Shown in pieces: positions 2,233-20,329 of a stretch of DNA of 64,000 bases. The notes beneath the pieces were generated by a model, which was not told where the DNA came from, searched no databases, and saw only the letters and a list, made by a program, of their open reading frames with translations. The position numbers and the translations under genes are program-made. Location of the stretch: positions 32,001 to 96,000 of the forward strand of contig CAWIMJ010000016.1 in NCBI GenBank assembly GCA_963837175.1, in the 5' to 3' direction. Source of the stretch: an uncultured Nitrososphaeraceae archaeon (GTDB taxonomy: Archaea > Thermoproteota > Nitrososphaeria > Nitrososphaerales > Nitrososphaeraceae). The first letter of the stretch is position 1, and every line of letters starts with the position of its first letter.

Positions 2233-2675
2233 GACGAGTACGATGTCTGGGTCTGACTTCATACGATAACCTTCTGTCACCGCTTGTACCTCATTTTGTT
2301 GTCCGACAGGAAAGTATGCCGCTTCATCTAACAATATAAATTTGACATTTGTATAACCTCTCAGGGTCTGTACGGTATGCGAAGGAAAAGCTTGTATTGT
2401 TGTATCTTTTATGTAAATTATAGGGCCTACTTGCTTGCATTCTACCGCAACTTTACCAGCGATAAGTAAATCATGTAACCTATCAATTAAATCCTCAGCT
2501 AAGTTAATTCTATGGCCGGTTACTATATGGAAATGTGATCCGTTATAATCATCATTTTTACTGCAAGATAGGCCATATACATAAGTATTAATTCAGTAAT
2601 ACCCAACCCTCTTGCTTTCTTGACAAATACGCTCTTATCATTATCCAGGGCATTGACTAACTGCATTTCATAATC
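2233..2675 (-). pseudogene. Terminase large subunit-like ATPase domain fragment (one frameshift near 2565, truncated at both ends)
   Basis: Manual translation: DYEMQLVNALDNDKSVFVKKARGLGITELIL (terminase-type Walker A)...HIVTG...QAFPSHTVQTLRGYTNVKFILLDEAAYFP (LRG then Walker B)...SDPDIVLV. Confidence 0.8.
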
Positions 2676-2682
2676 AACTGCC

Positions 2683-4128
2683 TTATTCTACATGATGTTC
2701 ATAAATTAATTGATCATAGAACCTAACAGACTTTATGTTTACAAATTCAAACATCCCATATCTTGATAATTCTCTACCAAATCCACTATTCTTTACTCCT
2801 CCAAATGGGACACGAGGATCTGAAATTACTACATTATTCACAGTAACCATTCCTGATTGAACCATTGACGATAACCTTTCTGCCTTGTCTAAATCTTGGG
2901 TCCATATACTTGCTCCAAGGCCAAATTTAGAATCATTTGCAATTCTAATAGCTTCTTTTTCCTCATCAACTGTAATTATTGGAGCAACAGGACCAAATAC
3001 TTCTTCCTGTGCTATTTCCATATGAAGTAATACATTCTTAAGGACAGTTGGACGGAAGAAGTAACCTTTATTTTTTATTCTTTCCCCTCCTGTAAGAAGT
3101 TCTGCTCCTTCCTTCACAGTTCTCTTTACAATACCTTCCATGTTTTCTAAGCTTTTAGCGTTAACAACAGGTCCAATATCTGTATCATCTGATAGAGGGT
3201 CTCCTACTTTGAGTTTTTCAGTCTTTTGTACGAATTTTTCGGTAAATTCGTTTGCTACCTTCTTTACAACAATAAATCTCTTGGATGCTATACAGCTTTG
3301 TCCACAATTAATAAATCTACCTTTGACAGCACCAGTAGATGTTTTTTCAATATCTGCATCTTCACATACTATAAAAGGATCACTTCCACCTAATTCCAAA
3401 ACTGTCTTCTTTATTTGCGAAGTAGCTCTCTGTGCTACTTTAGCACCTACTGGAACACTTCCAGTAAAGGTTACTGCGCTGATGCCATCTGAATCTATAA
3501 GTGTCTCAGCGGCACTAGAATCTGCAACGAGTGTTTGGAAAACTCCTTGTGGCACTCCAGCTTTATCAAATGTTTTTTCAATTTCTATTCCACATTGCAT
3601 TGTAGCACTTGCAGGTTTCAATACAATAGTATTACCAACCATTAAAGAAGGAGCAGCAAATCTTAGTCCCTGCCAGTAAGGAAAATTCCATGGCATTATA
3701 CTAGCAATTACCCCAAGAGGTTCAAATGTTATGATACTTTTTCTTGCATCTGTATTAACGACTTCACCAGTAGCAAATATCTTTCCATGATCTGCATAAT
3801 ATTCTATTGTCCATGCACATTTCTCAACCTCAGACCTTGATTCTTTTATTGCTTTTCCCATTTCCAATGTAGCGGTTTTGGCTAGGTTTTCTTTGTTTTT
3901 TCTAAGTTCTTTAGCAAATGCATAGAGGAAATCTACACGCTTATCAATATCTTCTTTCCATTCTAAGAATGCATTTTTTGATTTCTTTACCGTATCGTTC
4001 AGTTGCTCTTTGCTAATTATTGTATACTCGTTAAGAACCTCTTCTGTGGCTGGGTTGATTGTCTTTAATTTTTTATCTGTAATTGCTGTTGTAGGTGCTG
4101 ATAATGAGTCTTTTACGTCATCCTTCAT
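2683..4128 (-). CDS. NAD(P)-dependent aldehyde dehydrogenase (succinate-semialdehyde dehydrogenase-like)
   Basis: PWNFP, FTGS, LELGGSDP, NCGQSCIA catalytic Cys, EEVFGP, PFGGVKNSG motifs. Confidence 0.93.
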   Translation of the reverse strand: MKDDVKDSLSAPTTAITDKKLKTINPATEEVLNEYTIISKEQLNDTVKKSKNAFLEWKEDIDKRVDFLYAFAKELRKNKENLAKTATLEMGKAIKESRSEVEKCAWTIEYYADHGKIFATGEVVNTDARKSIITFEPLGVIASIMPWNFPYWQGLRFAAPSLMVGNTIVLKPASATMQCGIEIEKTFDKAGVPQGVFQTLVADSSAAETLIDSDGISAVTFTGSVPVGAKVAQRATSQIKKTVLELGGSDPFIVCEDADIEKTSTGAVKGRFINCGQSCIASKRFIVVKKVANEFTEKFVQKTEKLKVGDPLSDDTDIGPVVNAKSLENMEGIVKRTVKEGAELLTGGERIKNKGYFFRPTVLKNVLLHMEIAQEEVFGPVAPIITVDEEKEAIRIANDSKFGLGASIWTQDLDKAERLSSMVQSGMVTVNNVVISDPRVPFGGVKNSGFGRELSRYGMFEFVNIKSVRFYDQLIYEHHVE

Positions 4129-4541
4129 GGATTTATCACTCCTCTGCCCGTGATTTTCCCATCTTTTAGTTTAGAGAGTGCTTCTCTAGCTTGATCAAGC
4201 TTAAACCTTTCTGAAACAACAGGTTTAATTATTCCTCTCTTTGCCAATGATACAAGCTCTACCCTTTCATTTTTACTAAATCCTTCTACTTGTTCACCGA
4301 AACTATCCACAATACCTGCAATCTCGTTTCCTAGGGTAAGAGGATATTTTACACCTCTGTCTATAGTTTTTAATTGTTGCCCACCTATACCTTCATAATA
4401 ACCTTTCCATACGTGAACATCGCTATGACATACACCGGAAGATTGAATCTTGACTAGAACCTGTGTACCTTTTGATGTAGGCGTTTGAAGTTCTTGTATT
4501 TGTAGAGGTTCATTCAATTTAACGATTCTAGCAGCCTTCAT
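4125..4541 (-). pseudogene. Zn-dependent alcohol dehydrogenase with large in-frame internal deletion
   Basis: GVCHSD and LGNE (normally GHE) N-terminal part fused directly to the C-terminal 45 aa; NAD-binding domain absent; 138 aa. Confidence 0.85.
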
Positions 4542-4698
4542 GCCAAATCTTACTGATGAAATGTACTATTTACGTGATTCTAATTGAGGTCAAGATCAAA
4601 ATGTATATAAGAATTCCAGCCTCCCAGCTAACTATATTCTCATCTTTGAAAATTATTATTATAAGCAGTGATTAGTTTAGTTATTGCTATTATTACTA

Positions 4699-5154
4699 CT
4701 ATTCAAATGTACGATGGTGTGCTGCTTTGACATGTGATCTAAGAAATCTGCCAGCGGTCCTTTGATTTCTTTAACGTTATGTTTGAACAATACCATTTCC
4801 TCCGCTGCCAACTGCAGATACTCCTTTTCCTTCCTTTCTGCAATAGATATTTACCTTCCATCTTTCATCATCAATCTTTGGAAAGTCAGATCTATAGTGA
4901 CCACCTCTACTCTCTTGTCTCATCAATGCACTTCTTATTATGGCCCCACAAGCAATAAGTGATGATTCCACCTGGCAAGTCAATACAATATTTTTCAGAA
5001 TTATTATTATCGAAATTTCGAACTCTTTTATATCAATATTATCTTTATTAGAATAAAACTCATTCTTTAATTCTAAAATTCTTTTCAATCCACTTTGAAG
5101 CCTTGTCTGTTCTCTCACTATTCCTGCGTGATGTAAAAACTCCGTCGATGCCAT
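4699..5154 (-). pseudogene. C-terminal fragment of succinate dehydrogenase/fumarate reductase/L-aspartate oxidase-like flavoprotein
   Basis: AGIVR...ALMRQESRGGHYRSDFP motif; tail continues out of frame as MVLFKHNVKEIKGPLADFL..HVKAAHHRTFE*; FAD domain missing. Confidence 0.8.
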
Positions 5155-5180: not shown

Positions 5181-6110
5181 CTAACGTGTGACTGCTGCAG
5201 TGGAAAATACCTCCGGATGCGCAGTTACATACTCTCGAACTCTCATGCTTGGTTTTCCGGTTAACTTCTGCACGTCCGATGTCAACCGATCGTAGCGATT
5301 TTCCGCGATGAGCTTAGCCATAGTGGAAACGTGGTGAAAAACGTATTGAGGTAAATTGAGTGGCAATAATTCTTCCTTCAGCCACTTGTCGTATGGCGTG
5401 TCCACATATTTCACTGGGCGATTTAGTGCGATCGCGTATTCTTTTGCCATCTCATTCATGTCTTCCGATCGAGGACCAGTCAGTTCATAGACCTTCCCTC
5501 GGTGACCGGTGGGATCTTCCAAAATTGTGGTAACGACCCTTGCCACATCGCTAGCGGAAATTGGTGAAGTTCGCGCCGAGCTAAATGGAAATTTAATTGT
5601 CCCATCTTTGGCAATTGATGAGGCCGCCATGCTAGAGAAGAAAGGTTCCAGGAAGATCGTCGACCTCACATGTGCTACAGGCACTCCAGACCAGTTAAGA
5701 ACTTGCTCGCCGAGCCAATGTTGTTGCTGCTGAGGTGATTCGGTCATTTCAGTTAGACTCATCTGCGAAACTGTCATTTGTGAGATGTTTACGAGAATCT
5801 CGAAGTCGGGGATTTCTTTTGCTGCGGCTGCTGCAATAGCCGTAGCCTGAAGATATGGTGACGAGATACTCATGCCAAAATACATCCGCTTGCAACCGCG
5901 CAATGCTCTTACTACATCAGCACTATTTGTGAGGTCGGCGACGACAAGTTCGGCTCCCATTTCGCTCAACACTTGAGATCGTTCGTCGAGGCGGTGTACA
6001 AGCGCTCTGACTTGAAGATCGCGCTCCCGAAGAAGTTTGACGACACCTCGCCCTACGGAACCAACATTTCCGGCGGCTCCAGTAACAAGGATGGGTGTGT
6101 TGTTTGACAT
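5181..6110 (-). CDS. NmrA-like NAD(P)H-binding atypical SDR oxidoreductase
   Basis: ILVTGAAGNVG, VRALV, GKVYELTGP motifs; visibly more GC-rich than flanks. Confidence 0.88.
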   Translation of the reverse strand: MSNNTPILVTGAAGNVGSVGRGVVKLLRERDLQVRALVHRLDERSQVLSEMGAELVVADLTNSADVVRALRGCKRMYFGMSISSPYLQATAIAAAAAKEIPDFEILVNISQMTVSQMSLTEMTESPQQQQHWLGEQVLNWSGVPVAHVRSTIFLEPFFSSMAASSIAKDGTIKFPFSSARTSPISASDVARVVTTILEDPTGHRGKVYELTGPRSEDMNEMAKEYAIALNRPVKYVDTPYDKWLKEELLPLNLPQYVFHHVSTMAKLIAENRYDRLTSDVQKLTGKPSMRVREYVTAHPEVFSTAAVTR

Positions 6111-6169
6111 GGCTATTCCTCTAATGTGATTAGATATAAATATGAAAAGAGGTAGTAAATGCTCAGTAA

Positions 6170-6652
6170 TTCCTTCTTTTGTTCTTCAACTGGAAGAGAT
6201 TGAATGTCTGCCTGTTAGTCCTCTGTATTTTCCTGTTACATTTACTCCTCCTGAACCCTCGGTATCATCTGATAATACTGCCTTTGATACCTCATCGAGC
6301 CTAAGAGTCCGATAAGCAAATTTGAAGATTGTATTTGCACCGTTGGTTTACCAAAAACATTATGGAGATCAATATGTGTCTGACTTCTAATATATGGAAT
6401 ACCAGCAGTGTTAAAGTCGATTATAGAATCTAAATTGTTTGCCATACACCTGTTGTGTAATACCACAAGGTCTGAATCAACCCCATCTAGGTATTTTTGA
6501 GTGTCTTCATGATATTTGGAAACACCAGTGGAATACCATCCAATTCAAAAGTCATATTTCATTAGTTCCTGATTAATACTTACCAAAAGTTCACATTCTG
6601 TATTGTCAGAATTTGAAAAGTCTGATATGTGAAGGACTTTACTGTTTCCTTG
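6170..6652 (-). pseudogene. Family B DNA polymerase 3'-5' exonuclease domain fragment
   Basis: QGNSKVLHISDF...IGWYSTG...DSDLVVLHNRC (ExoII-like)...HIDLHNVF...AYRTLRLDEVSKAVL...GKYRGLTG..DIQSLPVEEQKK; one stop and two frameshifts; family call from motif recognition only. Confidence 0.65.
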
Positions 6653-6653
6653 G

Positions 6654-7325
6654 TTATTCACAAAGGCAGTTGCTGTAAGCTATCCAGTCTTGTAACGCTT
6701 GATAAGCTTCTGGTGAAATGTATGTGCAATATTGCTCTTCCTCTCCTACATAAACTAAAATCTTTGCAGCTATAATCTCGCTATTGTTATATATAGGCTG
6801 TATATGACCCCATTCTAAGATAACCCCATGCCCCAAGTCTTATTCCAGAAGATACCATAGTATATACAATTAGCTTTATTCTTCTGTCTGGATATTCTAC
6901 AATTTTACGTATTTCTTCAAGAGTAGGGGCGCGATCATCTGCCCATTTTCTTCCTTTTGGAAGACCAGGTGTTATTTTCTTCCAAGAGATAAGGATGTCG
7001 TTCATTTCTGTGAAAAGCTTTATGGCTTTAAAGTAGTTGCGTATAGTTGGCCCTGTGATTTCCTTTTTATAGGCTCGTTCCTTCTGAACTTGGATGAAAC
7101 TCATAACACTCTAAATACCCAATCATTATCATCATTTCTTCTCTCAACAAAGATTCGACAGCGCTATTCTGTGGTAGTACCTTCAATTCCAATAAAGGAG
7201 AAAAAAAGATTGAGTCTTGTCGTGTATCTATCTCTTGTTACTGGAGAATTCAGTGCATATAAAAATAATATATAGGGATCTGACGACAACGATGAGGATG
7301 AGGATAACGATGACGCTTCTATCAA
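6654..7325 (-). pseudogene. Tyrosine recombinase/integrase pseudogene (N-terminal SAM-like domain and start of catalytic domain)
   Basis: From TTG 7325: ...DPYILFLYALNSPVTRDRYTTRL...; TIRNYFKAIKLF; DDRAPTLEEIRK; SSGIRLGAW (catalytic Arg box); internal stop and frameshifts; HxxR and Tyr region lost. Confidence 0.85.
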
Positions 7326-7371
7326 TTGTTTTATTTTCACCTTATTATTTGTGGAACCGATTAAAAAGAAG

Positions 7372-7404
7372 TGATATCACAATGGGCTCAAGGGTGTGTG
7401 AATC
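7372..7404 (-). repeat. Degenerate copy of tRNA-Ile2 3' end (att-like scar)
   Basis: tgatatcacaatgggctcaagggtgtgtgaatc vs 20245-20277 tgatatcggattgggcccaagggggtttgaacc; similar distance to the integrase start (57 vs 53 bp). Confidence 0.7.
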
Positions 7405-7420
7405 AAATTTGACTCAAATG

Positions 7421-7585
7421 TTGGGCCCAAATGTGCTATTAACTCTTGGCGGATGATGATTGTCGCATTAGCGTAGTATTTGAGCCAAGACCATTACAAT
7501 GTTTATATCTTAGCCCATAATCTATCTGTGTCCTCTCCATTATTGGTCTTGTGCAGCTATATTATGCAGTACGTCTTAGAGTGTT
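7421..7585. repeat. Non-coding repeat family A, copy 1 (starts with palindrome TTGGGCCCAA)
   Basis: Aligns by eye with 8708-8902: aaatgtgct.ttaa.ctctt, gatgattgt, atttgagccaagacc.att.ca..gttt.tatct.ag, tattatg...tctt..agtg. Confidence 0.8.
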
Positions 7586-7743
7586 CGTAATGATGGTACT
7601 GTTTCTTCTCTTTTTCCCTGCTTGAAGCGACCATCAATGTGCTTAATATATGCCAAAATCAAGGTGTAGTCCTTAATATATTGCGGATAACCTATCATCA
7701 TCTCTTGATAATAATAGATCCAGATACTACGATTTAGCTCCTA

Positions 7744-8526
7744 TTACTTCTTACCACCAAATAACTCTGAGACTTCTCCAGTTACATTACCTAAAACACT
7801 AGCCGTTTTGTTTACAAACGTCTGTGCTGCTTCTCCTGTATTATTAATAATTGATTTACCAGTTTGAGAAACATTAGCTCCAGCAGCCTGTGAAGCATTA
7901 TTTGGTACATTTTCTTCTGTCATATTGGTTGCTTTTTTTGGAGAAGATGATGTTGAAGGTTGTGACGTTGTTGTCATCATTTCTGCTTTTGCCTGTCCTT
8001 TGACAGTTGCTATATCTCCTTGTCCCATTTGAGTGCCTATAAGTTCTATAACTCTATCATCTTTACCGAAGTTAATTTGCAATTCTCTTGCTGTTTTGTT
8101 ATTCGACATTTCTTGAAAGTTAGTAATTTGTTTTGCATTAATATTAACTACAAACATACCATCCTTACCACCTGCAATTTTATAGTCTGTTAGATTTCTT
8201 GGTAAGATAATCATTAATTTTCCATCTTTCGTTGGAGCAATAGTCACAATGAGCTTTGCTGACTCTTTCTGTGCAACAGTACTCACAAGTTTAGCAGCAT
8301 CATCATTTGTAATATTGTATTTTATTGGATACATAATACCATTTATGGTGACGTTAGCAGTTTGAAATGTTGTATCATTAAGGTCTTGCTGTTGTTCTTG
8401 ACGTGTGGGTGGTGAACCTTGACTATAGGCTAACTGAAAAGTGGAGAAAGATAACGATGATATCGCCGCTATAATAGATAAAATCAAGAGAATAGGTATC
8501 ATACCAATTACCATTGTTGTGGCCAC
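7744..8526 (-). CDS. Secreted/surface protein with a domain like those of thaumarchaeal PEFG-CTERM proteins and a low-complexity tail
   Basis: Signal-like N-terminus; YPIKYNIT...DGKLMIILPRNL...RELQINF...IELIGT; many NxS/T sequons; no PEFG motif. Confidence 0.7.
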   Translation of the reverse strand: MATTMVIGMIPILLILSIIAAISSLSFSTFQLAYSQGSPPTRQEQQQDLNDTTFQTANVTINGIMYPIKYNITNDDAAKLVSTVAQKESAKLIVTIAPTKDGKLMIILPRNLTDYKIAGGKDGMFVVNINAKQITNFQEMSNNKTARELQINFGKDDRVIELIGTQMGQGDIATVKGQAKAEMMTTTSQPSTSSSPKKATNMTEENVPNNASQAAGANVSQTGKSIINNTGEAAQTFVNKTASVLGNVTGEVSELFGGKK

Positions 8527-8707
8527 ACTTGTTGTTTTAGTAGTATTTATTGAATAGGTACTGTCTTTTCTTATTATGATTGACGATTCTTATTCCTTTT
8601 GCTAGCACATATAACCTACTTTTCTAAAGTATTTCAGGCTTACAGTTTTCATTACCATTTATTAATTAATTATTACTTTTGAGAATATCAGCAATTTAAG
8701 CCGATAA

Positions 8708-8902
8708 TTAGACCCAAAATGTGCTGTTAACACTCTTTATGTGTCCGATGATTGTGGAAGTAACGTAAGCATTTGAGCCAAGACCCATTGCAGCGTTTCT
8801 ATCTCAGTCCACAGACTTTCTAGATATACTTTATTAGGAGACGGATGCATCTCTCCCTCTTCTTCTTTTGTATTATTCTATTATGTATTATCTCTTGTAG
8901 TG
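8708..8902. repeat. Non-coding repeat family A, copy 2
   Basis: Starts ttagacccaa (degenerate core); shares GATGATTGT and ATTTGAGCCAAGACC with copy 1. Confidence 0.8.
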
Positions 8903-8942
8903 ACCTTAACGGGACTAGTGTTGATGATTGTATTGACGATGA

Positions 8943-9040
8943 TAGTGGTGATGATTCATTCATACAGAGTTCGATAATCTGCAGTCACTTACGATGTAAA
9001 ATAAGGTTTGAAGCACTAAAGAGACAGCGAGGGAGAGAAA
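8943..9040. repeat. Non-coding repeat family B, copy 1
   Basis: gtgatga..ttcattcat.cagagttcgataat.tgc.gt.actta....aaaataag.tttgaagca...agacag.gagggagaga shared with 10532-10640. Confidence 0.85.
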
Positions 9041-9096
9041 GAGGAGAAAAAAAAGTTAGAGTAAATACAGATATTCTAACTCAGCTCAAAGATGAG

Positions 9097-9963
9097 CTAC
9101 AAGTTAGTCTTCTTCTTATTTACGAGCAGCTTTTGCTTTTCTTTTGGAAAGAGTAGGTGACTTATTCCCTTCTCTTCTGGCTGACCGTAAAGATCTGGAT
9201 GTAGGTAATAACCTCTTTCCTTAGCAGGCTTATCTTCCTCAACCTCAATCCTGTTAGAATTAGCCCAAGGATCCTTTCGTATACCTGTTACCTGCCATGA
9301 GACTTTCATACCTGATGCGCCTCCTGCAATCTTGAAGCGACTGTTGTTGTTGTTGTTCTTGTTTTTGCTGCTGCTTTTACTACTACTGTACTTTGTATTA
9401 GTATTAGTATCCATATCAGATATTTCCTCTGCAATATAGAGATTCGGCCCAGGAGCTCCTATAGCGGTAAGCTGATAGCGAAAATCCTTATTGAGTATAC
9501 CAAACCAATCTGGAAGATCTATCTCTGCTTTACCCTTGTTGTCTAACGCAACCACACCATCATAGACGTTCTTCATATCTGGTGACTCTACAAAGGAGTG
9601 GCAGAGGTATTTGTTAGCTGGATCAAGTGGGTGGTCTACCTTAAATGAACCTCCAGCTTTTTCAAGATTACCGGTTATTTTCACTTTCCCGTTTAGGACG
9701 GCAGCATAGTCAAAACTGCTATTGCAATACAAACCAGCGCTGTTGCCGCTCATGCCAACCACACCAAAGCCGTCGCGGCTGCCGCCAAGCACACCACCGC
9801 CCTTCTGGCTAATGCCATTCACACCAGCGCCTTCACTGCTCTTGCCATACACACCATCACCAAAGCTATCACTTTCGCCATACACACCATTGCCAGCGCC
9901 TTTACTGCTCGTGCCAGACACACCGTAACCTACGCCATCGTCAACTCCATCTACGTGTGACAT
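9097..9963 (-). CDS. Gly-rich GVxG-repeat protein with C-terminal FKVDHPLDP-NKYL-HSFVESP domain (fibre/adhesin-like)
   Basis: About seven 11-13 aa GV(Y/N/L/V)GxS repeats followed by a domain typical of C-termini of bacterial and phage fibre-like proteins; no signal peptide. Confidence 0.7.
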   Translation of the reverse strand: MSHVDGVDDGVGYGVSGTSSKGAGNGVYGESDSFGDGVYGKSSEGAGVNGISQKGGGVLGGSRDGFGVVGMSGNSAGLYCNSSFDYAAVLNGKVKITGNLEKAGGSFKVDHPLDPANKYLCHSFVESPDMKNVYDGVVALDNKGKAEIDLPDWFGILNKDFRYQLTAIGAPGPNLYIAEEISDMDTNTNTKYSSSKSSSKNKNNNNNSRFKIAGGASGMKVSWQVTGIRKDPWANSNRIEVEEDKPAKERGYYLHPDLYGQPEEKGISHLLFPKEKQKLLVNKKKTNL

Positions 9964-10041
9964 ATCAGTAGTCCTCCTCTCCCAATAATAAACAGGGTTC
10001 TATGAGCCATGCACATGATTGATGTATAAGATCATTTGTAC

Positions 10042-10066
10042 TTTTCATAGGCCCTAGCTATGAAAA
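10042..10066. promoter_or_regulatory. 9-bp inverted repeat upstream of the fibre-like gene (possible operator)
   Basis: TTTTCATAG-gccctag-CTATGAAAA, about 80 bp upstream of the start at 9963. Confidence 0.4.
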
Positions 10067-10120
10067 TGGACTATATAATATCATAATTTAACTGAAAATG
10101 ACTACCTGCTCAGCAATGAG

Positions 10121-10519
10121 TTTAACATCTATGTAGACTCTACAAATCTAGAAATCTGGGCGTCACTTCACTCAAAAGTGAATTGGAGAAAGATAGGATG
10201 AGCAGTACCTTAAAGAGAGTATGGCACATTGCAAGAAACATGCTTAGTTAGACGCAGAAAATAGAATGATAGTGGTAGTAGCAGTACCATTCTCTACAGA
10301 AGATGCACACAGATGTTGCAGGCATGCTAAATCTTCGTTATAAGATGAAAGTGATTTGATAGCTGCTCACTCAGCTAGATTCCATAAATTGGTAAGAGCA
10401 GACTACAACTAACACCAGTAGCAAATGAATACACATTAGACAAAGAACAAAGATCATTTGACGATATACTTGATGCTTTTAGATTAGCTTTGATATTCTA
10501 CAAGAGGACTAAGGAGTAG
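10121..10519 (+). pseudogene. Terminase large subunit-like C-terminal nuclease domain relic
   Basis: FNIYVDSTNLEIWASL...VVVAVPFSTE...RFHKLVRA...VANEYTLDKEQRSFDDILDAFRLALIFYKRTKE*; DDxxDA is the terminal RNase H-fold motif; several stops and frameshifts. Confidence 0.75.
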
Positions 10520-10531
10520 TTGTTGATTGTG

Positions 10532-11941: not shown

Positions 11942-12306
11942 TGGTTAACCATCGTCTTTACATTAAGTCGTTGATCGATAATTGGCAGAGTAACGTAAAA
12001 GGTATCTCCTTTTTCTCTATGAGTATTAATATTATTATTCTCGACCCAATTCTTGCCACTATGGAATTCAATTATGATTTTAACAATAAACAACAATCCT
12101 AATCCATTAGCTTGATAAGACTTTGAATTAAACTTTGAGAATAGTTGTGGCAATATTTCAGAGTCTATACCAGTACCTGTATCGTTTACTTTAACAGCAG
12201 CATGAGAATGTTTCTTTTCTGTGATAATAGTCATTGTACCTTCTCCTCCTTCTTCTTTAGCAAATTTCACAACATTACTTAATGGATTAGATATAACTTG
12301 AATCAA
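11938..12306 (-). pseudogene. Histidine kinase HATPase_c fragment
   Basis: Degenerate N box, DTGTGI, GLGL, G-TF; no HisKA or sensor domain. Confidence 0.8.
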
Positions 12307-12750
12307 CCAACTTCAATCTACTTTTATAAATACATCTTCCTCAGATTGGAATAATAATATGTCATTACTAGGGTTAAACTTTGTTCTTTGTTAATCATCA
12401 TGATTATAAACTCTGAAGTTACTTAACTACTTAGGTAAAGCCGACTTGTGATATGTTGACATATTTGTATATAATATGCAATGTTTATCTTTTATCATAT
12501 TTCATTGCCTTCACAGCCTTCATCATCATTGGACATGAAAAAGTAAACAAGACAAACAATCTATTGCCTAGAAATGCTACAGACACTCGAGATTCTAGGA
12601 ATTGTGAGAGTGCGAAAGAATATAAAAGATATCTGCAAGTCAATTCCTCTTCAGCATGAGAATTGAGCAGTATTACACTATATAGCTGAGCAAAATCTAC
12701 TATAAGATATAGGATATATCTTTCTATATATTATGTAATAATTATTATGT

Positions 12751-13029
12751 ATGAAAAAAGTCCGCCAGCAGTCTGTAATAGTATTGACTGCAGCAGCAGC
12801 CATTCTCATTTGGATATCGATAGTAGCAATGATAATACCTCAAATAGTATTTGCAAATAAGGACGAAGGAAATCCATCTTCATCAACTGATGATTGCAAA
12901 TCTGATCAACTACCTGCAAGTATAGACGGAAAGATAAGATGTATGGGACAAGGAGAATGTTACTCAGAAGACTTTGAGATTGATGGAAAAGAAGTAAAAC
13001 ATTGTAACTTTATGATGAGTAACCAATAG
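12751..13029 (+). CDS. Small secreted protein with four Cys
   Basis: Signal-like N-terminus ending VFA; two IDGK repeats with Cys. Confidence 0.6.
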   Translation: MKKVRQQSVIVLTAAAAILIWISIVAMIIPQIVFANKDEGNPSSSTDDCKSDQLPASIDGKIRCMGQGECYSEDFEIDGKEVKHCNFMMSNQ

Positions 13030-13186
13030 ATAGATAGATAGCTAGAATAAATAACATAAATATATTGCTCAGACTGTAAAATGAATTGATTACGAAGCTG
13101 TTGTTGGTTTTGAGCTTTCTCTTGTTGTCATTTAATCAGATAATTTCTCACTCATCATTTAACTTTGGTAAAGCGAATTTGTTGTT

Positions 13187-13327
13187 TTAGATATTGGAAC
13201 AAATTATATAACACCTGTTAGATTTTGCTTCCCATATACCTAGTCCTACAGATATTCCAGTTATGGCTATACCTATGATTAAGAGTAGTTTTTGTTTTGA
13301 TTTGATATTATCTAGTTGATTTTGCAT
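13187..13327 (-). CDS. Small membrane-anchored hypothetical protein, possibly truncated
   Basis: MQNQLDNIKSKQK then one hydrophobic helix. Confidence 0.3.
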   Translation of the reverse strand: MQNQLDNIKSKQKLLLIIGIAITGISVGLGIWEAKSNRCYIICSNI

Positions 13328-13660
13328 CGTTATCTTTCTGAAGCCGTAATTTATAAGATTATTGATAATTATGCTTTGTTGCATAATTCGGAAAAACAGT
13401 CGTTTCTAGATGGTTTCAGGATCAACTATGAATAGCTCAGAAGTGATATCTGTCATTTGATTAAAGTTTTTCAAACTTATTGACTAATATCAGATTCATG
13501 CAACAAAGCAGATAATTATAATCTCTAAAATACAGATTCCATAGAATTAGACAATTTATCATGCAATTTCATCTATCAATAGGAATTATTGGTAATTATT
13601 CCCATGTTATGACAGCCTAAATCAACTATATTGTCAAGTCGAAAAGCATTCATTATTCTC

Positions 13661-14494
13661 TTATTGAATATCCCAATAGATAGTTGTGTCTTCATTATTT
13701 GAAGGCGCTGGCTGTGGTTGGGATTCTTCTTTCGGTACAACCACCTTATCTTTTTCCTCTTCCTGCTGTTGCTCCCGAATAGATGGTGATGATGATGAAG
13801 TAGATGGAGATGGTGTTATTGAAACAGAAGGAGTTGTTGATTCTGGACTAGTAGTACTTGTTGTTGTAGTCACAGTTTTAGTATCATTATTATTATCTCC
13901 CTTTACAGGAGGCAATATAGAAGAAGATGAAACAGTTTCACTAACATTATTCTGTTGTTCTTCTTTTGCTGCTGACGTGGCCCTTTCAGAAGAAGAAGAT
14001 TCCATTATTCCAGTAACATCTAAACTATAATATGTTGTTAAATTGACAGTACCTCCGCCATCATTATTATTATTAAGACAAGATAATTTAGAAGTTAGAA
14101 TGTTTGTTCCGTTTGTAATAAGATGATAATTGTTAGTATATGTATAATTCCATCTAGAATAGTCATCTACTCCTCCAGGACCTGTTGCAACAGCTTTCTG
14201 AAATGGCTTTGTATTATTCCAATCAGCATATACTGTACAATCAGAAGTTACATTATCTGTAGATATTCCTGAAATGGTAAGCTGGCCAACTGGCACTTCA
14301 TCGGCAGCAGGTGATGTAATCTTTACGCCCATTATCGGTAACTGTTGTTGTTGTACTTGTGCTTGTACATATAAAGTACGATAATAATAATAATAATCTG
14401 GAAGAGCAAAATAAAGAAGGATTATTATTATTCCAAAAGTAAACAACAGTAGTTTAAGTTCTTTTATTAACTTGAGCTGGCTAGACCTTTTCAT
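13661..14494 (-). CDS. Secreted protein with Ig-like domain and S/T/Q-rich tail
   Basis: N-terminal TM segment; VKITSP...LTISGISTDN..DCTVYADWN...YSRWNYTY...LTSKLSC. Confidence 0.7.
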   Translation of the reverse strand: MKRSSQLKLIKELKLLLFTFGIIIILLYFALPDYYYYYRTLYVQAQVQQQQLPIMGVKITSPAADEVPVGQLTISGISTDNVTSDCTVYADWNNTKPFQKAVATGPGGVDDYSRWNYTYTNNYHLITNGTNILTSKLSCLNNNNDGGGTVNLTTYYSLDVTGIMESSSSERATSAAKEEQQNNVSETVSSSSILPPVKGDNNNDTKTVTTTTSTTSPESTTPSVSITPSPSTSSSSPSIREQQQEEEKDKVVVPKEESQPQPAPSNNEDTTIYWDIQ

Positions 14495-14699
14495 GCTTTA
14501 TACTATAGCTCTCTATACAATATATCTAATAAGTGAAGATTCTATTGGTATGCAGCCAGCGAAATAATAACAGATCGTATACTCTTCAGCATTACCATAC
14601 TACCTATGAAGATTTAGCTGTAGGATGTGGTGGTAGTAGTGGTATTGGAATGTGAAATTTTAAAAGCTATGCAATATTATTTAAGGAAGATGTATTGAC

Positions 14700-15605
14700 T
14701 TGGTGGCTATTGATATAAGCCTTGAAAGAAATAAATATGCTGCTGGAGAAACAGTGAAAGGAATACTTACCATCTCTGAAGATAAGGAGTTTAAGGCACA
14801 AAGTCTTGAACTATCAGTTTCTGGAGAGGAGAGAATAATAGAAATAAGTGATGAAAAATCTTTTGAGACTAGAAGAATAACAGCCCAAGTATCTAATATT
14901 TTCTTCTCAAAAGACCTTTCACACTTTCTAAATTCAATAGGAACAAAGGTAAAAGATGATGATAATGATAATATGCTGCAAGTGCCGGGTGGTATTACAA
15001 AAGTCCCTTTTGAATTTACCATTCCAGATGATGCTCTAGAATCTTATGAAGGTAAATATGCAATGACAATTTACAAAATAGAGGCTGCAGCTAATATGCC
15101 AAGGAGACTAGATATAGGCAAAAGTTTGTCATTCAACGTCTTTAATCAGAAGAGAAAGAATATGAAGTTTGACAGGGCTATTATAGAGGAAATAAAAGAG
15201 AAAACAAATTCTGGTATAAGATTAGAGCTTGAAGGAGGAGATGACAAGAATAATACTTTCTCTCCGGGTGAAATTATAAGAGGAAAGATAATCATAGAAG
15301 ACTCTAAGATATCACCAAAGATAAGGAAGGCAGAGCTTATTTTAGGTGCTATAGAATTTGTTCAAGCTCAAAGAAAGAAGAAAAGAACTGAGATCTTTCC
15401 AAATTATAAAGAGAAAGTTAAAGGTAAAATTGAATGGAATAAAGATGATAATAGTAGTATTATTCAATTTGAGACGCATATTCCAAAAGATATAAGGCGA
15501 AGTTACCTTGGAAAGTATTCTGAATATTACTGGTTGCTTGAGGCAAAAGTCGATATACCATGGTCTGATGATTTGTCCGCCAGTACTATTATACAAATTG
15601 TTTGA
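14700..15605 (+). CDS. Arrestin/Vps26/SpoOM-fold protein with two related beta-sandwich domains
   Basis: YAAGETVKG...PFEFTIP...SYEGKY...YKIEA repeated as FSPGEIIRG...FETHIP...SYLGKY...WLLEAKVDIPW. Confidence 0.75.
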   Translation: MVAIDISLERNKYAAGETVKGILTISEDKEFKAQSLELSVSGEERIIEISDEKSFETRRITAQVSNIFFSKDLSHFLNSIGTKVKDDDNDNMLQVPGGITKVPFEFTIPDDALESYEGKYAMTIYKIEAAANMPRRLDIGKSLSFNVFNQKRKNMKFDRAIIEEIKEKTNSGIRLELEGGDDKNNTFSPGEIIRGKIIIEDSKISPKIRKAELILGAIEFVQAQRKKKRTEIFPNYKEKVKGKIEWNKDDNSSIIQFETHIPKDIRRSYLGKYSEYYWLLEAKVDIPWSDDLSASTIIQIV

Positions 15606-16244
15606 ATAAAGAGTAATAGTATTAGTGTGATCGGAAAATCCCTAAATTAACAATGGCCTATTGACGCCATCGTACTACTACTGAATTCAGATACTAATTG
15701 ATATGGTCCTGAATTCAATATCTTAGCAAAATGATTCAAAATATATATTTGATCATGTTGATCCAGACGAAGAGGATAATGAAATAATATATTCAATAAT
15801 TAATCGGCGAACACACAAATCCTACTTTATTTCTGAATGCTTTAGCTAGCATCTCAGTATCGTACTCTTAGGCCTTTATTCTAAGATTTAATTTAATAGT
15901 TCCTAAATAGTTGTTACTAGATGGAGAGTAGCTTGCATTTTATAATGGATTCATATCTGCTTGAACCCTAGATATAAGTGGGTTCACATAATATTGGTTA
16001 ATTATATCGTTACCAATATGAAGTAACTTATTCTCACAAGGTGTATTTAATTCTTACATATAACATGATTCAATAGTATGTTCTATTAATAACCCAGTTC
16101 TCGTTACAGGTTTATTTCCAATTATTTGTGACTGTATTTATTGAAATAACGAAATCTGAAAAGTTTGAATTTATCTATTGATAGAAGGACGTAGGCTAAG
16201 TACCTGATAAAAAATACAATTAGAACACAAGATATTACTATCGT

Positions 16245-16568
16245 TTATTTATTGAATTTACGATAAATTGCTATTAGATTATTGCATCTTCTACATCTAT
16301 ATTCTCCTTTCTCAATAAGGATAATATCTTCGCCTAGTCTTTCATTTGGATTTTCATAACTTATTATTGGAGAACCAGCATATTCCTTTTCACATCTCTT
16401 ACAATAATATTTTGAAAATCTATCTTCATTTAATCTTCCTACATTTCCTAGGAATATATGAGGAACTCCAAGACTTGCTTTGATTTCTTCTTGTTCTGTT
16501 AGTTTTGCAAGAGCATAGCCACCTGATCCTAATAATTTCTTTTCCTCTAAATCTTCGTTCTTACTCAC
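16245..16568 (-). CDS. Zinc-ribbon hypothetical protein
   Basis: CKRC...CRRC pairs. Confidence 0.75.
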   Translation of the reverse strand: MSKNEDLEEKKLLGSGGYALAKLTEQEEIKASLGVPHIFLGNVGRLNEDRFSKYYCKRCEKEYAGSPIISYENPNERLGEDIILIEKGEYRCRRCNNLIAIYRKFNK

Positions 16569-16647
16569 ATATCCTATAGTGAATAGCTATAATTTTAATA
16601 ATACATCAACATTATTTGACATTGCAACAATCTAAGTGGATTCATTC

Positions 16648-16836
16648 TCACTTCTTCTTCTTCTTACTTTCTGCCATTCTAACCACTACAGTGATTTCAT
16701 TCTTTCTTGCTTCTAATGACCAATCTAATTTATCACCTGCTTTTAATCCCCATTGCTTTACAATAAACATAGGAATAGTAGTACGTAATGATGCTTTGTT
16801 TGGAGCATTTAATGCTAATGTTGTTGCCTCTCCCAT
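16648..16836 (-). CDS. AbrB/MazE/SpoVT-family DNA-binding protein
   Basis: SLRTTIPMFIVKQWGLKAGDKLDW swapped-hairpin motif. Confidence 0.85.
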   Translation of the reverse strand: MGEATTLALNAPNKASLRTTIPMFIVKQWGLKAGDKLDWSLEARKNEITVVVRMAESKKKKK

Positions 16837-16872
16837 ATAAAGTCTACAAGTAAATGATCATGTATTAAGTTT

Positions 16873-17006
16873 GTCTACCAGTATACCACCACATTTTATA
16901 ACTTATAGTATACCATAAAATAGGTATGAATAAAATAATAACTGTACTCGATAAAGAACAGGCACACACACAATACACAATACATTAACTCTTAGAAGGT
17001 GGTATA
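16873..17006. promoter_or_regulatory. Repeated GT(A/C)TACCA boxes upstream of the AbrB gene
   Basis: GTCTACCA 16873, AGTATACCA 16880 and 16907, inverted GGTGGTATA 16998. Confidence 0.5.
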
Positions 17007-17191
17007 GACTTACGTCGATTATATGCTTTAATGACAAATTAAGAAAAGTTTAACTAAAAGGGACTTAATGTTAAAATATTGCTACCACAATTTACTGTGG
17101 CTGCATCCTGTCAGCAAAAAAGATTGGAAGTAGACCTCGTTATCAGACTAATAAGTATATCTCGAATAGAGCATCTTCTATAGTGTTACCA

Positions 17192-17543
17192 ATGCAAGAT
17201 GCTACTGATATTGATTGGGACAATGTTGATAGGGCTTGGGATCCAACTCCAAACCCTCCACCAAATGGGACATGTAAATGGAGACTTGATAAAAGTGGTC
17301 CTGAAAGCCAATGGAGGAATTACTGCCAGGGTTATACTTGGGAATATAGGGGGAATTGACAGGGGCAGTGTGCGCCGGTTTGGCATAACTAGCGAAGCAA
17401 GTTCAAGAACAGCATCCTGTTATTTCAAAAGTATGCGCAGATGTTCTTCAGGTACACCTTTAAATCCTACTTCATGCGGTCCATGCAACGATTGGGCATA
17501 CCCATGTTGCTTTGATAATGGTATTTGTAAAAAAAAGACCTAA
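17192..17543 (+). CDS. Cys/Trp-rich small protein, apparently split at a G run (17192-17359 plus 3' part of 17199-17543)
   Basis: MQDATDIDWDNVDRAWDPTPNPPPNGTCKWRLDKSGPESQWRNYCQGYTWEY then another frame ...SCYFKSMRRCSSGTPLNPTSCGPCNDWAYPCCFDNGICKKKT. Confidence 0.4.
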
Positions 17544-17888
17544 GATTTTCATAAAAAAATGAATAAAAAATAGCTTGGAAATTAAAACCCAAGATCTTCA
17601 CAAAAGTAAAGCTAACTGCTATTCCATTTGATAAGATAGACTATTAGGATTACAACTGCAGTAGTTATGCCTGCAAGTAGTGAAAATATCTCTATTCTTT
17701 GTACAGAAACGAGATGATTGATCTGCGAATAAATTGTTGAAGTAGGTGTTATAAAAAAACAAAATATATGGGTTTTCCTAATTTGATATTTACGGCATCG
17801 TGTAAACCATTTATGAAACTCGAGCAAAGTTTACCACATAATACAAAACTTATATCTTTCATGATAGTGACTATGGATATACATAGAT

Positions 17889-18554
17889 ATGTCAGATTCA
17901 TTAAATCCGCGTGATCTGGGAGTTATTGTTAGAAACACACAGCCAGAGGACATTTCTAAAATAGTCAATTTGCAGATCGAATCATATCCGTATCTTTCTC
18001 CTTATGGAAATATATGGCGTTCAGAAGAGCTTGAAAGTCATCTTCGCATTTTTCCGCAAGGACAATTTGTTGCTGTTGAACCAGATGATACTATAGTCGG
18101 TTCTGCCAGTACTCTTATGGTGTCACTTAATCCTGAATATGCAGAACATACGTGGAAAGACATTACTGCAGACGGTTTATTTATAACTCATATTCCAAGC
18201 GGAGACAGTCTGTATTTAGCAGATATATCTACCCATCCAAAACACAGACATGAAGGTATCGGAGGCATGATTATTCACAGATGGAAGGAATTAGTTACGA
18301 AGTTAAATCTAAGGAGGATGATAGGAGGAGGAAGGTTATTTAACTACTGTGATCATGCAGTCAAGATGTCTCCATATGAATACGTTGGGAAAGTGATGAA
18401 AGGGGAATTAAAAGATCCTGTTCTCACATTCGAATTGAATATTGGGTTTAGATTTGTCAAAATACTCACAAATTACCTGGATGATGTCCGTTCTCTTAAT
18501 TACGCAGGTTTTATAGAATGGTTAAATCCAAATGCGCTCAAAGTCTCTAGCTAG
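17889..18554 (+). CDS. GNAT family N-acetyltransferase (YkwB-like)
   Basis: FPQGQFVAV, THPKHRHEGIG, GGRLFNY, LKDPVLTFEL motifs. Confidence 0.88.
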   Translation: MSDSLNPRDLGVIVRNTQPEDISKIVNLQIESYPYLSPYGNIWRSEELESHLRIFPQGQFVAVEPDDTIVGSASTLMVSLNPEYAEHTWKDITADGLFITHIPSGDSLYLADISTHPKHRHEGIGGMIIHRWKELVTKLNLRRMIGGGRLFNYCDHAVKMSPYEYVGKVMKGELKDPVLTFELNIGFRFVKILTNYLDDVRSLNYAGFIEWLNPNALKVSS

Positions 18555-18724
18555 CGGTTTATGGATTAAAATTGACGATATTTTAGGTCCCATACTCAAT
18601 CGTTTTATGAAGAATACAAATCAGGTAGTCGTTGGTCTGGGTTCGGTGGATTCGCTATCCTAGCACTCCTAATTTAGAACTCTTATTTCCTAGCTATAGT
18701 CAGGCCATAAAGCATATTTCTGCA

Positions 18725-19672
18725 TCAGCCAATTGCATAGAATATTCGCCAAATTATAAACCCTGTTACTACTATCAATACAATACCAATAATCAGTTTC
18801 AAACTTCCTTCACTGAATCTATTGGTATATTTCGCTCCCATGTATCCTCCAAGCATTGCAGCAGGACCCATTGTGATCATCATCAGAAAGTCAACATTTC
18901 CGTTAATTATATGTCCAACCAAACTAGATGCACCAGTTAAAGATGATACTGCTAAATTTGTTCCAATTGCTACTTTGGTTTCCATTTTTAAGACAGAAAT
19001 CATTGCAGGCAAACGTATACTTCCAATGATTAAGCCTACAAGTCCTCCAACGAATCCTATTCCAAATCCTATGAACGATTCAGTAAAAATAAATTGCTTG
19101 TTATAGACTCCTGAAATATTTGAAGAATTAGAAGGACTAGAACGAAGAGCACTACTAGGATCATGAATCAGATCCAAATTGTTGTTATCTTCTTTGTTGT
19201 TATTGCTTCTTCTCATCTCTTCGTCCTTTTTCTTTCTTGAACTCTTAATTAATACAAATGCTTCATACAAGACTATTATTGCTATAATACCAAGTAATAG
19301 AGTAACAGGAATGTATTTTGTGAAGACGGAACCAAAGAAACCGCCAGTAGAACCTGTGGCAGCCATAATTAAAAACGTTTGAAGAGAGATGTTTTTTTGT
19401 CGAAAATGTCTAATAGCAGCAGCAGCCGCTCCAAAAGTGCTTACTCCAATATTAGTCCCGGCAGCAACACTTACTGAAGAAGAAGAAGGAGAGGAAGGAG
19501 AGAATGAAGATTCAACTCCTAAAATGATAAATGCAAGTCGCAATACTCCAAGGACAAGTCCAACCATTCCGCCTACAAATCCAACTACAAAACCCAATAA
19601 AACAAGAATGATAGCAATAACTAAATCAATATTAATGGTCTGGAGAAGCTTATTCCCTAATAAAAGTTGCAC
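18725..19672 (-). CDS. TauE/SafE (DUF81) sulfite exporter family membrane protein
   Basis: Duplicated GFVGG(M/L)VGL..G..RL motif, AxGTN repeats, about 8 TM helices. Confidence 0.88.
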   Translation of the reverse strand: MQLLLGNKLLQTINIDLVIAIILVLLGFVVGFVGGMVGLVLGVLRLAFIILGVESSFSPSSPSSSSVSVAAGTNIGVSTFGAAAAAIRHFRQKNISLQTFLIMAATGSTGGFFGSVFTKYIPVTLLLGIIAIIVLYEAFVLIKSSRKKKDEEMRRSNNNKEDNNNLDLIHDPSSALRSSPSNSSNISGVYNKQFIFTESFIGFGIGFVGGLVGLIIGSIRLPAMISVLKMETKVAIGTNLAVSSLTGASSLVGHIINGNVDFLMMITMGPAAMLGGYMGAKYTNRFSEGSLKLIIGIVLIVVTGFIIWRIFYAIG

Positions 19673-19678
19673 GTTTAC

Positions 19679-20203
19679 TTATACTATGATTTTGGAACAT
19701 GTAAATTCAAACGCGTTACCATATCTTATAATCGAAAGTCCAGTGCTACAAAGAGTACTGTTTGGCAGACAGCTTTTGAAAGAAGTTAACATCCTTTTGA
19801 TTTCTTCGATTGTAGGAGCACGATCATTTGCATATTTTCTTCCTTTAGGCATCCCACGTGTTATTTTATTCCAAGGAATATCGATGTCCATCTGTTTGCA
19901 GAATAATATTATAGGCCTGATATAATTTCTCAATGTAGAACCTGTTATTTCTTTTCGTTCTACTCTATTCTTATGAATTTGTAAGTATTTCAAGAGATTG
20001 TTGGCAAACCAGTTGATATCACTTTTTGCTTTTTCACCAAAGATGTTACAGCGATCTTCAATTGTGTCGTACCGCTCAATACCAATATAGTCAAAAAAAT
20101 AACCTAACCGCTGAAGATATTTTTCCCTGGTTATAGGGGATCTTATAGCTAAGGTGAATATCGAATAAGGACTTGAATTTAATTGAACCGGTTCTTCTAT
20201 CAT
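19679..20203 (-). pseudogene. Tyrosine recombinase/integrase N-terminal fragment next to the tRNA
   Basis: SPITREKYLQRL...STLRNYIRPI...NDRAPTIEEIKR then unrelated sequence; paralogue of 6654-7325. Confidence 0.85.
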
Positions 20204-20255
20204 TCTTTGTTACCTTTTGTTATATTAGAACCCTAATTAAGGACTGATATCGGAT

Positions 20256-20329
20256 TGGGCCCAAGGGGGTTTGAACCCCTGGCCGACCGGTTATGAGCCG
20301 GTCGCTCTACCAGGCTGAGCTATGGGCCC
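20256..20329 (-). tRNA. tRNA-Ile2 (CAT anticodon); tRNA-Met less likely
   Basis: GGGCCCATAGCTCAGCCTGGTAGAGCGACCGGCTCATAACCGGTCGGCCAGGGGTTCAAACCCCCTTGGGCCCA; GGGCCC acceptor is Ile-like. Confidence 0.9.

Follow-up and report, generated by a model that had tools for sequence, protein, structure and literature searches.

Stacked dead integrations at a tRNA(CAT) gene of a Nitrososphaeraceae archaeon, with relics of replicase and terminase modules whose intact relatives appear capsid-less

The DNA analysed here, hereafter the window, is a 64,000-nt stretch of contig CAWIMJ010000016.1 (positions 32,001-96,000; assembly GCA_963837175.1) from an uncultured, ammonia-oxidizing Nitrososphaeraceae archaeon of soil. 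Beside one of its tRNA genes, with anticodon CAT, lie fragments of two integrases, of a large terminase subunit (TerL) and of a family-B DNA polymerase (PolB). They are probably the remains of stacked, dead integrations at this tRNA gene, relics of two modules that combine freely, one for replication and one for DNA packaging, and their intact relatives are 11-13 kb elements without capsid genes. In what follows, G000 denotes the window's own genome (3.8 Mb), other G numbers denote sampled genomes, Cn after a colon a contig and L numbers loci. The family sample comprised 101 Nitrososphaeraceae genomes; its PolB counts include G000 and the unpublished G035, and its TerL counts include G000 and the unpublished G035 and G077.

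Element relics beside the tRNA gene

The relics and the features that frame them, in window coordinates, are:

20255-20330, minus strand: tRNA with anticodon CAT, probably tRNA-Ile2, the integration target (ARAGORN; Rfam tRNA, 69.9 bits)
19679-20203, minus strand: integrase relic 2 (Int2), N-terminal SAM-like domain only, in a 174-aa frame
6657-7376, minus strand: integrase relic 1 (Int1), N-terminal domain and start of the catalytic domain, in three frames
6170-6679, minus strand: PolB exonuclease-domain relic, starting after Exo I and ending before Exo III
2233-2687, minus strand: TerL ATPase relic, running from Walker A to slightly beyond Walker B and spread over two frames, with both ends cut off
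10124-10516, plus strand: C-terminal relic of the TerL nuclease domain, the last ~125 residues, in three frames with stops
7366-7404, minus strand: inner attachment-site (att) remnant, in which a degenerate tRNA 3' end is continued by element-side sequence (39 positions, 30 of them matching)
1-20254: the part within the window of a 30.6-kb island at the tRNA, delimited by synteny with G041:C8

All fragments were identified through intact relatives; no significant Pfam match was obtained for any integrase, TerL or PolB fragment of the window, and the TerL and PolB fragments themselves had no match in PHROGs. The TerL ATPase relic, which shows recognizable Walker A and Walker B motifs, is flanked by a GYD gene and an intact aldehyde dehydrogenase gene. 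It is 61-69% identical to the intact TerL at L034:9443-10699 (joint E 3.6e-45) and is matched by a viral TerL profile with E values of 7e-32 and 4e-13. The nuclease relic was recovered as three collinear tblastn matches with correct spacing (10124-10183, 10269-10400 and 10412-10513), the last two with E values of 3e-8 to 8e-8 and the first not significant alone (E 0.27); its last 30-34 aa match at 56-67% identity. These two TerL pieces lie on opposite strands and in different blocks of the island. The original prediction for this DNA had placed a terminase-type ATPase at 2233-2675 and a terminase-type nuclease at 10121-10519 on the opposite strand, and both were recovered with nearly the same limits.

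Intact TerL relatives join an N-terminal Walker A/B ATPase to a C-terminal RNase-H-like nuclease, and none of 15 intact copies deviates in Walker A, Walker B or the nuclease aspartates. Such relatives match PHROG phrog_2 with E 1.4e-26, the TerL paralogues on contigs C5 and C22 of G000 match it with E 4e-15 and 5.7e-13, and a profile of 15 TerL sequences had a T4-type gp17 as its top PDB match (E 3.7e-4). The family is present in 65 of the 101 sampled genomes, six of which (G015, G027, G038, G060, G076 and G090) have at least 20 TerL matches each, these being matches and not copy numbers. Of the 150 listed matches, about 48 by hand count are frames that run uninterrupted for 480 aa or more. 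TerL is under purifying selection, with dN/dS values of 0.04-0.17 in six within-genome pairs, part of whose divergence may predate integration. There are also 166 TerL relatives in genome contigs, nearly all of the best 80 belonging, by title, to metagenome-assembled genomes (MAGs) of Nitrososphaerales or Thermoproteota, and 396 relatives in metagenome contigs. In a second element relic of the window's genome (L001, G000:C5:3236-4773), the primase-helicase is broken and a frameshift, at an insert of low complexity rich in Lys and Glu, splits TerL; an AEP/PriX primase, a DNA methylase and a TerS-like helix-turn-helix (HTH) protein accompany them. One TerL of the same archaeal family (45% identity) is on a 2.7-kb contig (L181) assigned to a Candidatus Brocadia MAG, probably through a binning error.

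The PolB relic keeps the Exo II region only, with one in-frame TGA plus frameshifts; it has lost Exo I and Exo III as well as the polymerase domain (motifs A, B and C). Its best relative is the PolB of G015:C15, with 71% identity over 73 residues and 81% over the 27 residues at the start of the window piece. No other copy or housekeeping paralogue of the fragment was found in G000 by tblastn, and a family search with the piece returned one 52-residue match in that genome, at a contig end (E 1e-6). PolB relatives occur in 22 of the 101 family genomes, with intact frames of ~690 aa or ~1400 aa and one of 1797 aa. The intact relatives carry a YGDTDS motif, match Pfam DNA_pol_B (PF00136, E 1.1e-24) and are closest in the PDB to an RNA-primed, cellular-type enzyme (1s5j, E 1.9e-34), not to protein-primed ones. 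The long ones have an N-terminal primase-helicase part. At L022:571-5949 (G070:C43), L008 (G013), L009 (G002) and L010 (G074), single frames of 1390-1800 aa begin with a part resembling a primase-polymerase, continue with a P-loop helicase region and end in a complete family-B polymerase; no PDB match was obtained for the first 1150 aa of the G070 replicase. The PolB relatives are primase-helicase-PolB replicases of integrative elements, and neither the PolB nor the TerL pieces of the window derive from a housekeeping gene.

Tyrosine recombinases carry the catalytic motif R..K..HxxR..H/W..Y. Neither Int1 nor Int2 has a complete tyrosine recombinase catalytic domain, and both are pseudogenes. 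Int2 ends before the catalytic domain and abuts a TauE gene directly. Its N-terminal part (the first ~137 residues) shows 44-47% identity, over ~130 residues, to other integrase paralogues of G000, and its orthologue in G017, a genome of the same genus, has a 300-aa open frame (90% DNA identity) that is still truncated. Int1 is 50-66% identical to G000 paralogues and matches the PHROG integrase phrog_5127 (E 2.6e-4); it stops shortly past the first conserved Arg region (SSGIRLGAW) and then joins the PolB relic, on the same strand, at ~6665-6680. The homology of the window pieces to the tyrosine recombinase family is thus read from 44-66% identity to paralogues, of which the one on C7 matches PF00589 (Phage_integrase, E 1.3e-7) and Phage_int_SAM_1 (E 5.6e-5). 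Identity between Int1 and Int2 is as low as 44% (over 96 aa); they are therefore separate arrivals rather than the products of a duplication. Int2 corresponds to the second integrase that had been predicted at the tRNA, and a PolB exonuclease piece predicted to abut an integrase relic (6170-6652) is the somewhat longer relic found here joined to Int1.

On one strand of G015:C15, an integrase 67% identical to Int1 is followed, 2.3 kb downstream, by a primase-helicase region and then PolB. Since the order is the same there, the Int1-PolB junction of the window is best read as an internal deletion within one element.

Integrase copies of the same family lie on at least nine further contigs of G000 (C7, C8, C15, C25, C29, C12, C17, C22 and C55). 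All inspected copies (the C7, C8, C12, C15, C25 and C29 loci) are frameshifted or truncated, and two adjoin intron-bearing tRNA genes on C7, a kind of tRNA gene that ARAGORN misses. G000 seems to hold many dead integrations.

Borders of the island and stacked integrations

The identity of the target as tRNA-Ile2 is plausible, though not proven: its acceptor stem, GGGCCCA, has six of seven positions in common with that of tRNA-Ile(GAT), GGGCCGA, and is unlike that of the other CAT tRNA of G000, on C50. The island starts at G000:C16:21612, 10.4 kb left of the window, and ends at window position 20254. In G041:C8, from the same genus, the right flank, the tRNA and the left flank are contiguous and the island is absent. 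In G000 the left flank (C16:21281-21591) is followed by a 19-nt copy of the tRNA 3' end (both within C16:21281-21611), identical at 17 of 19 positions and 30.6 kb from the tRNA. This flank encodes the first 79 aa of an integrase whose identity to that of the G070 element is 62% (E 6.5e-27). As the 79-aa stump is common to G000 and the G041 flank, an older integration predates the two species.

Inside the island, the inner att remnant lies directly before Int1 and copies the tRNA 3' end plus the sequence downstream of it; only four other sites in G000 reach at least 27 of 39 positions with that tRNA 3'-end query. The pattern at 7366-7404 is what would be expected if a newer element B had integrated into the tRNA restored by an older element A. 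Read in this way, the inner att remnant at Int1, together with the integrase stump beyond the island border, shows that three or more integrations are stacked at tRNA(CAT). The att remnants and the synteny with G041 agree with the repeated integration and decay, with cargo, that had been proposed for this tRNA.

We propose that at least three successive tyrosine-recombinase elements integrated into the 3' end of this one tRNA gene and so built the 30.6-kb island. Each new element would have restored the tRNA, pushed the older one away and left a partial tRNA 3' end, and deletions, frameshifts and rearrangement would then have killed every element gene. The oldest event would have left only the 79-aa stump outside the island. 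The middle block, element A, would extend up to 7365 and hold Int1, the PolB exonuclease piece, metabolic genes and the TerL ATPase piece, all on one strand; the youngest block, element B (7405-20254), would hold Int2 at the tRNA and the nuclease end of TerL on the other strand. Nothing in the window copy can still move, and only its cargo genes may matter to the cell.

A dispersed repeat complicates the inner remnant:

8704-9042: non-coding repeat of ~340 bp, present in ~10 copies in G000

Partial copies lie at 7384-7517 and 10519-10700 of the window, the latter directly 3' of the stop of the TerL nuclease relic, and further copies were found on C9, C12, C13, C17, C39, C52 (two copies) and C8, some of them starting with a tRNA-3'-end-like stretch. 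The repeat may mark the end of an element, or it may be an RNA gene or a non-autonomous element of small size. Two points count against reading 7366-7404 as the scar of an integration: the remnant overlaps the start of this repeat, and other copies of the repeat carry similar att-like ends away from detected tRNAs, which makes the site less clean than a simple att scar.

Intact relatives and the mixing of modules

At G070:C43 the order is a tRNA-like sequence, an integrase, an HTH protein, a 1792-aa replicase with DNA_pol_B, a 115-aa open reading frame (ORF), TerL and a 211-aa Zn-finger ORF. The order and strand of integrase, PolB and TerL match block A of the window; the tRNA-like sequence beside the integrase was recognized by a sub-threshold Rfam clan match and by eye only. 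G078 contains two copies, at different sites, with a common gene set of 11.2-13 kb: an AAA protein, an AEP primase with a PriX domain, a TerS-like HTH protein, TerL, three small ORFs and an integrase. The latter is oppositely oriented, which matches block B of the window. A gene set of 11-13 kb in which TerL, primase and integrase are all intact is found more than once in one genome and again in other genera, and other TerL loci swap in MCM, or MCM and PolB. Among the small conserved ORFs behind TerL in the elements are ones of 77, 154 and ~230 aa. A conserved 233-aa element ORF had no usable match in the Atlas, and its model was poor.

The original prediction had assumed a single family combining integrase, TerL and PolB, and this is not what the relatives look like. 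Only at five distinct loci (G070:C43, G041:C19, G046:C315, L149 and L223) is the distance between TerL and PolB as short as ~3-10 kb. Among the 53 TerL loci of at least 9 kb, three have PolB and 16 an integrase. Genus g2 has PolB in three of ten genomes and TerL in none of the ten, and G015:C15, the closest relative of the Int1-PolB pair, has no TerL within 40 kb. Given these tallies, there is no single integrase-TerL-PolB family, and the modules combine freely. The replicase module would consist of a primase-polymerase, a helicase and a PolB of the RNA-primed type, or of MCM, or of an AEP primase with a PriX domain, and the second module would be a viral TerS-TerL packaging pair. A satellite-like gene content, that is, integrase, own replication and packaging genes in 10-15 kb and no virion genes, is present in the G078 and G070 relatives and not in the dead copy of the window.

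Search for capsid and portal genes

Among viral contigs, 68 IMG/VR loci carry related TerLs (30-51% identity), and a portal cluster of ~450 aa follows TerL in 56 of them, with more head genes behind it. Portal and head profiles were built from the clusters of these 68 loci and searched, with TerL, against six frames of all of G000 and of 51 genomic loci. TerL gave 48 matches; portal and head profiles matched only at G079 and G100, which look like true proviruses, and nowhere in G000 or in any of 20 capsid-less TerL loci. The portal profile matched one of 160 further TerL loci, and the Pfam capsid and portal models PF05065 and PF04860 had no match in any of five genomes. The prediction that no capsid or portal gene would be recognizable therefore holds for the whole of G000, with profiles specific to the family. 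Pfam and PHROG scans of 139 neighbouring proteins covered the top 25 families each, beyond which single weak portal or capsid matches could lie. A 628-aa ORF after TerL in G003 was considered as a portal and rejected, being a glycosyltransferase. A 503-aa ORF of G079 with a weak capsid-protein match (E 0.005) belongs to a head-module cluster found in two of the 101 genomes.

In a TerL tree from a quick IQ-TREE maximum-likelihood search, 21 genomic TerLs, including the window relic, and six viral contigs form one clade (clade I), and the other clade (support 98) holds the portal-bearing viruses together with the G079 provirus. Viral contigs with the TerLs closest to the genomic ones have divergent portals, with a weak phrog_12 match, and a minor head protein (E 2.4e-7); the profiles made for these divergent clade-I portals, to which proteins of 617, 632 and 447 aa at L061, L119 and L059 belong, had only two members each.

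Satellites, decayed proviruses or domesticated terminases

The capsid-less architecture is established for the intact relatives, and a satellite lifestyle is plausible for them. Intact elements would use TerS-TerL to package their own DNA into the capsids of a helper head-tailed virus; we put this forward tentatively, as the simplest use for a kept packaging motor.

Several observations weigh against the elements being discrete satellites, or against the window relics belonging together. Intact TerL elements do exist, and their neighbourhoods, unlike those of the TerLs in G079 and G100, lack portal and head genes, but exact-repeat searches found no distal att repeat for the intact L037, G070, L035 and L038, so that the sizes given for intact elements rest on copy-to-copy similarity. 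In 37 of the 53 TerL loci of at least 9 kb, no integrase is present within the available flanks. No circular contig was found among 160 TerL loci, and a query with the element primase found no relative in IMG/VR. Genomic and viral TerLs are interleaved within clade I, and the viral contigs concerned are those with divergent portals and minor head proteins. In the window, ~3.5 kb of metabolic genes separate the PolB and TerL ATPase relics; this TerL piece need not come from the element of Int1 and PolB, given the lack of TerL at G015:C15.

Decay from full proviruses is possible for many TerL loci, and the alternative that best withstands the data extends this to the TerL relics of the window and most TerS-TerL loci: they would be leftovers of complete head-tailed proviruses whose structural genes were deleted, TerL being seen as the most conserved gene. 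The viral nature of the TerL family speaks for it, given the portal cluster that follows TerL in 56 of the 68 IMG/VR loci, and so do the complete head modules beside family TerLs in G079 and G100, the sister position of clade-I genomic TerLs to viral contigs with portal-like and minor-head proteins, and the many TerS-TerL loci with neither integrase nor replicase nearby. The TerS and TerL genes of NitKor-E1 have likewise been read as a likely relic of a head-tailed virus in the accessible part of Krupovic et al. 2019 (PMC6563490). Random loss, however, should leave portal or capsid fragments as often as intact TerL or more often, and the portal and head profiles matched none of the 20 capsid-less loci and one of the 160 further ones. 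Nor does decay readily account for the 11-13 kb gene set that recurs, with intact TerL, primase and integrase, within a genome and across genera, for the ~48 uninterrupted frames among the 150 listed TerL matches, or for the low dN/dS of TerL. We consider this explanation unlikely.

Far less probable still is that the TerS-TerL pairs were domesticated, by the host or by non-viral elements, for DNA processing in replication or virus interference and not for packaging. The many copies per genome (at least 20 matches in six genomes), the conserved catalytic motifs under purifying selection, the lack of PF05065 and PF04860 matches in five genomes and of portal or head matches in G000, and the primase query that found no element relatives in IMG/VR would all fit. 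Against it, the pairs keep the viral gene order, with a TerS-like HTH protein upstream and a small downstream ORF in common with a viral contig, and they sit in integrase-bearing elements rather than at fixed host loci; we know of no precedent for a domestication of this kind. That the fragments are chance look-alikes, or pieces of a cellular helicase or the housekeeping PolB in an ordinary stretch of chromosome, is scarcely credible, since for all the lack of significant Pfam matches and the weak DEAD/ResIII matches of one TerL paralogue (E 1.4e-3 and 0.024), they are 61-81% identical to intact element genes, the ATPase piece fits the TerL profile with E 7e-32, the PolB piece has no further copy in G000 by tblastn and one short contig-end match in the family search, and the island is missing from the same site in G041.

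We thus return to capsid-less elements with two modules as the probable source of the relics. Still more tentative than the packaging into helper capsids is the general proposal that 11-13 kb capsid-less elements with their own replicase and TerS-TerL form a large, undescribed class in soil Nitrososphaeraceae; they would be satellites that bring their own terminase, and their decay at tRNAs would build cargo islands.

Cargo and other island genes

The remaining genes annotated in the window part of the island are:

2683-4128, minus strand: intact aldehyde dehydrogenase, cargo (Pfam Aldedh, E 1e-151)
4125-4541, minus strand: alcohol dehydrogenase fragment of 138 aa (Pfam ADH_N and ADH_zinc_N_2, both partial)
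4777-5154, minus strand: C-terminal fragment, 125 aa, of a succinate dehydrogenase/fumarate reductase flavoprotein (Pfam Succ_DH_flav_C, E 1.7e-16)
5181-6110, minus strand: NmrA-like NAD(P)-binding protein, cargo (Pfam NmrA, E 1.9e-20)
9097-9963, minus strand: 288-aa Gly-rich-repeat protein, multi-copy, no Pfam match
11558-12306, minus strand: response regulator and truncated histidine-kinase ATPase domain, cargo or relic (Pfam Response_reg and HATPase_c)
14700-15605, plus strand: 301-aa protein with arrestin N-domain (E 1.6e-18) and C-domain (E 7e-8) matches
18725-19672, minus strand: TauE/SafE sulfite-exporter family gene abutting Int2 (Pfam TauE, E 3e-42)

The protein of the aldehyde dehydrogenase gene is 78% identical to that of a gene from another genus (G055:C31, L031:6173-7608), where TerS-TerL lies 2 kb away, and homologues of the response regulator and histidine kinase lie beside TerL in loci of G027, G055 and G028; cargo may be shared among elements. 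The 288-aa protein, which had no match in Pfam or the PDB, has copies on C15, C5 and C8 (81-87% nucleotide identity), with Gly-rich repeats from 33-nt tandem units and a conserved C-terminal domain. Hydrolases are also among the working-looking metabolic and transport genes of the island. Of the metabolic and surface cargo once predicted, the metabolic part was borne out by Pfam matches (aldehyde dehydrogenase, the NmrA-like protein and others), and the surface part was not confirmed. The sequence of 6100-10600 is present in soil metagenome runs from at least seven studies, which says nothing on habitat, and a small share of it in two metatranscriptomes, which says nothing on expression.

Comparison with known elements

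Phage satellites of bacteria (PICI, cf-PICI and PICMI) are ~10-15 kb long and have an integrase, their own replication and packaging genes, and no full virion module; they often reside at tRNA genes or other fixed sites and carry cargo. Classical PICIs have TerS only and borrow the TerL of the helper, and cf-PICIs also carry capsid genes. The elements described here differ from both in having TerS and TerL without capsid genes and in their archaeal host, and their dependence on a helper is putative. In marine cyanobacteria, tycheposons are reportedly tyrosine-recombinase elements at tRNA genes whose decayed, stacked copies build cargo-rich islands; host domain and gene families are different, and the likeness is one of description only.

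Among thaumarchaeal elements, casposons, ThaMY3-E2 and NitEve-E6 (accessible part of PMC6563490) are likewise integrated and self-replicating with their own family-B polymerase. Cas1 (PF01867) is absent from G000, G041, G015 and G046, and in G070 it lies only on another contig; the elements here are not casposons. Unlike those, they integrate by a tyrosine recombinase at tRNA genes, and their PolB is fused to, or preceded by, a primase-helicase. A close counterpart is NitKor-E1 of Ca. Nitrosopumilus koreensis AR1, described in the same source (PMC6563490) as having integrase, TerS and TerL only and as enigmatic, probably a relic. It too is a thaumarchaeal integrated element with a tyrosine integrase, TerS-TerL and no other genes of head-tailed viruses. 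According to that part of the source, TerL was found in five thaumarchaeal hits, and no non-viral element had until then been seen to carry a terminase (Krupovic et al. 2019, PMC6563490), whereas the TerL family here occurs in 65 of 101 genomes, often in many copies. The present elements also differ from NitKor-E1 in their defined replication modules and recurring 11-13 kb architecture, a distinction of description and not of sequence; NitKor-E1 was not among the best 80 of the 166 genome-contig TerL loci.

The elements share their TerL family and a TerS-like gene upstream of it with head-tailed proviruses of Nitrososphaeria (Nvie-Pro1 type, as given in the accessible part of PMC6563490) and with thaumarchaeal IMG/VR contigs, and a small ORF downstream of TerL is common to the elements and some viral contigs. 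Unlike those viruses, with portal, head and capsid genes beside TerL in 56 of 68 loci, they have none in the window, in G000 or in the 11-13 kb elements. The accessible part of a 2025 preprint gives pSSVi and pSSVx as the only archaeal satellites known before and adds satellites of spindle-shaped viruses, and that of a 2026 survey of archaeal proviruses makes no mention of capsid-less TerL elements. In the literature at hand, seen in part, we found no description of such elements in Nitrososphaeraceae, where the supplement of PMC6563490 may list Nitrosocosmicus elements, nor of a satellite of a head-tailed archaeal virus.

Implications

About 30 kb beside this tRNA gene is imported DNA in which working-looking metabolic and transport genes stand among dead element genes, and the island provides a concrete route of gene gain in ammonia-oxidizing archaea. 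A capsid-less viral terminase, noted once in Thaumarchaeota as an oddity, is found here in 65 of 101 genomes of one family, in many copies, its motifs intact and its dN/dS low. Should its carriers prove not to be satellites, there would still be a conserved orphan packaging motor to explain. If they are, they would open up triangles of virus, satellite and host in globally important nitrifiers and be the first archaeal case tied to head-tailed viruses.

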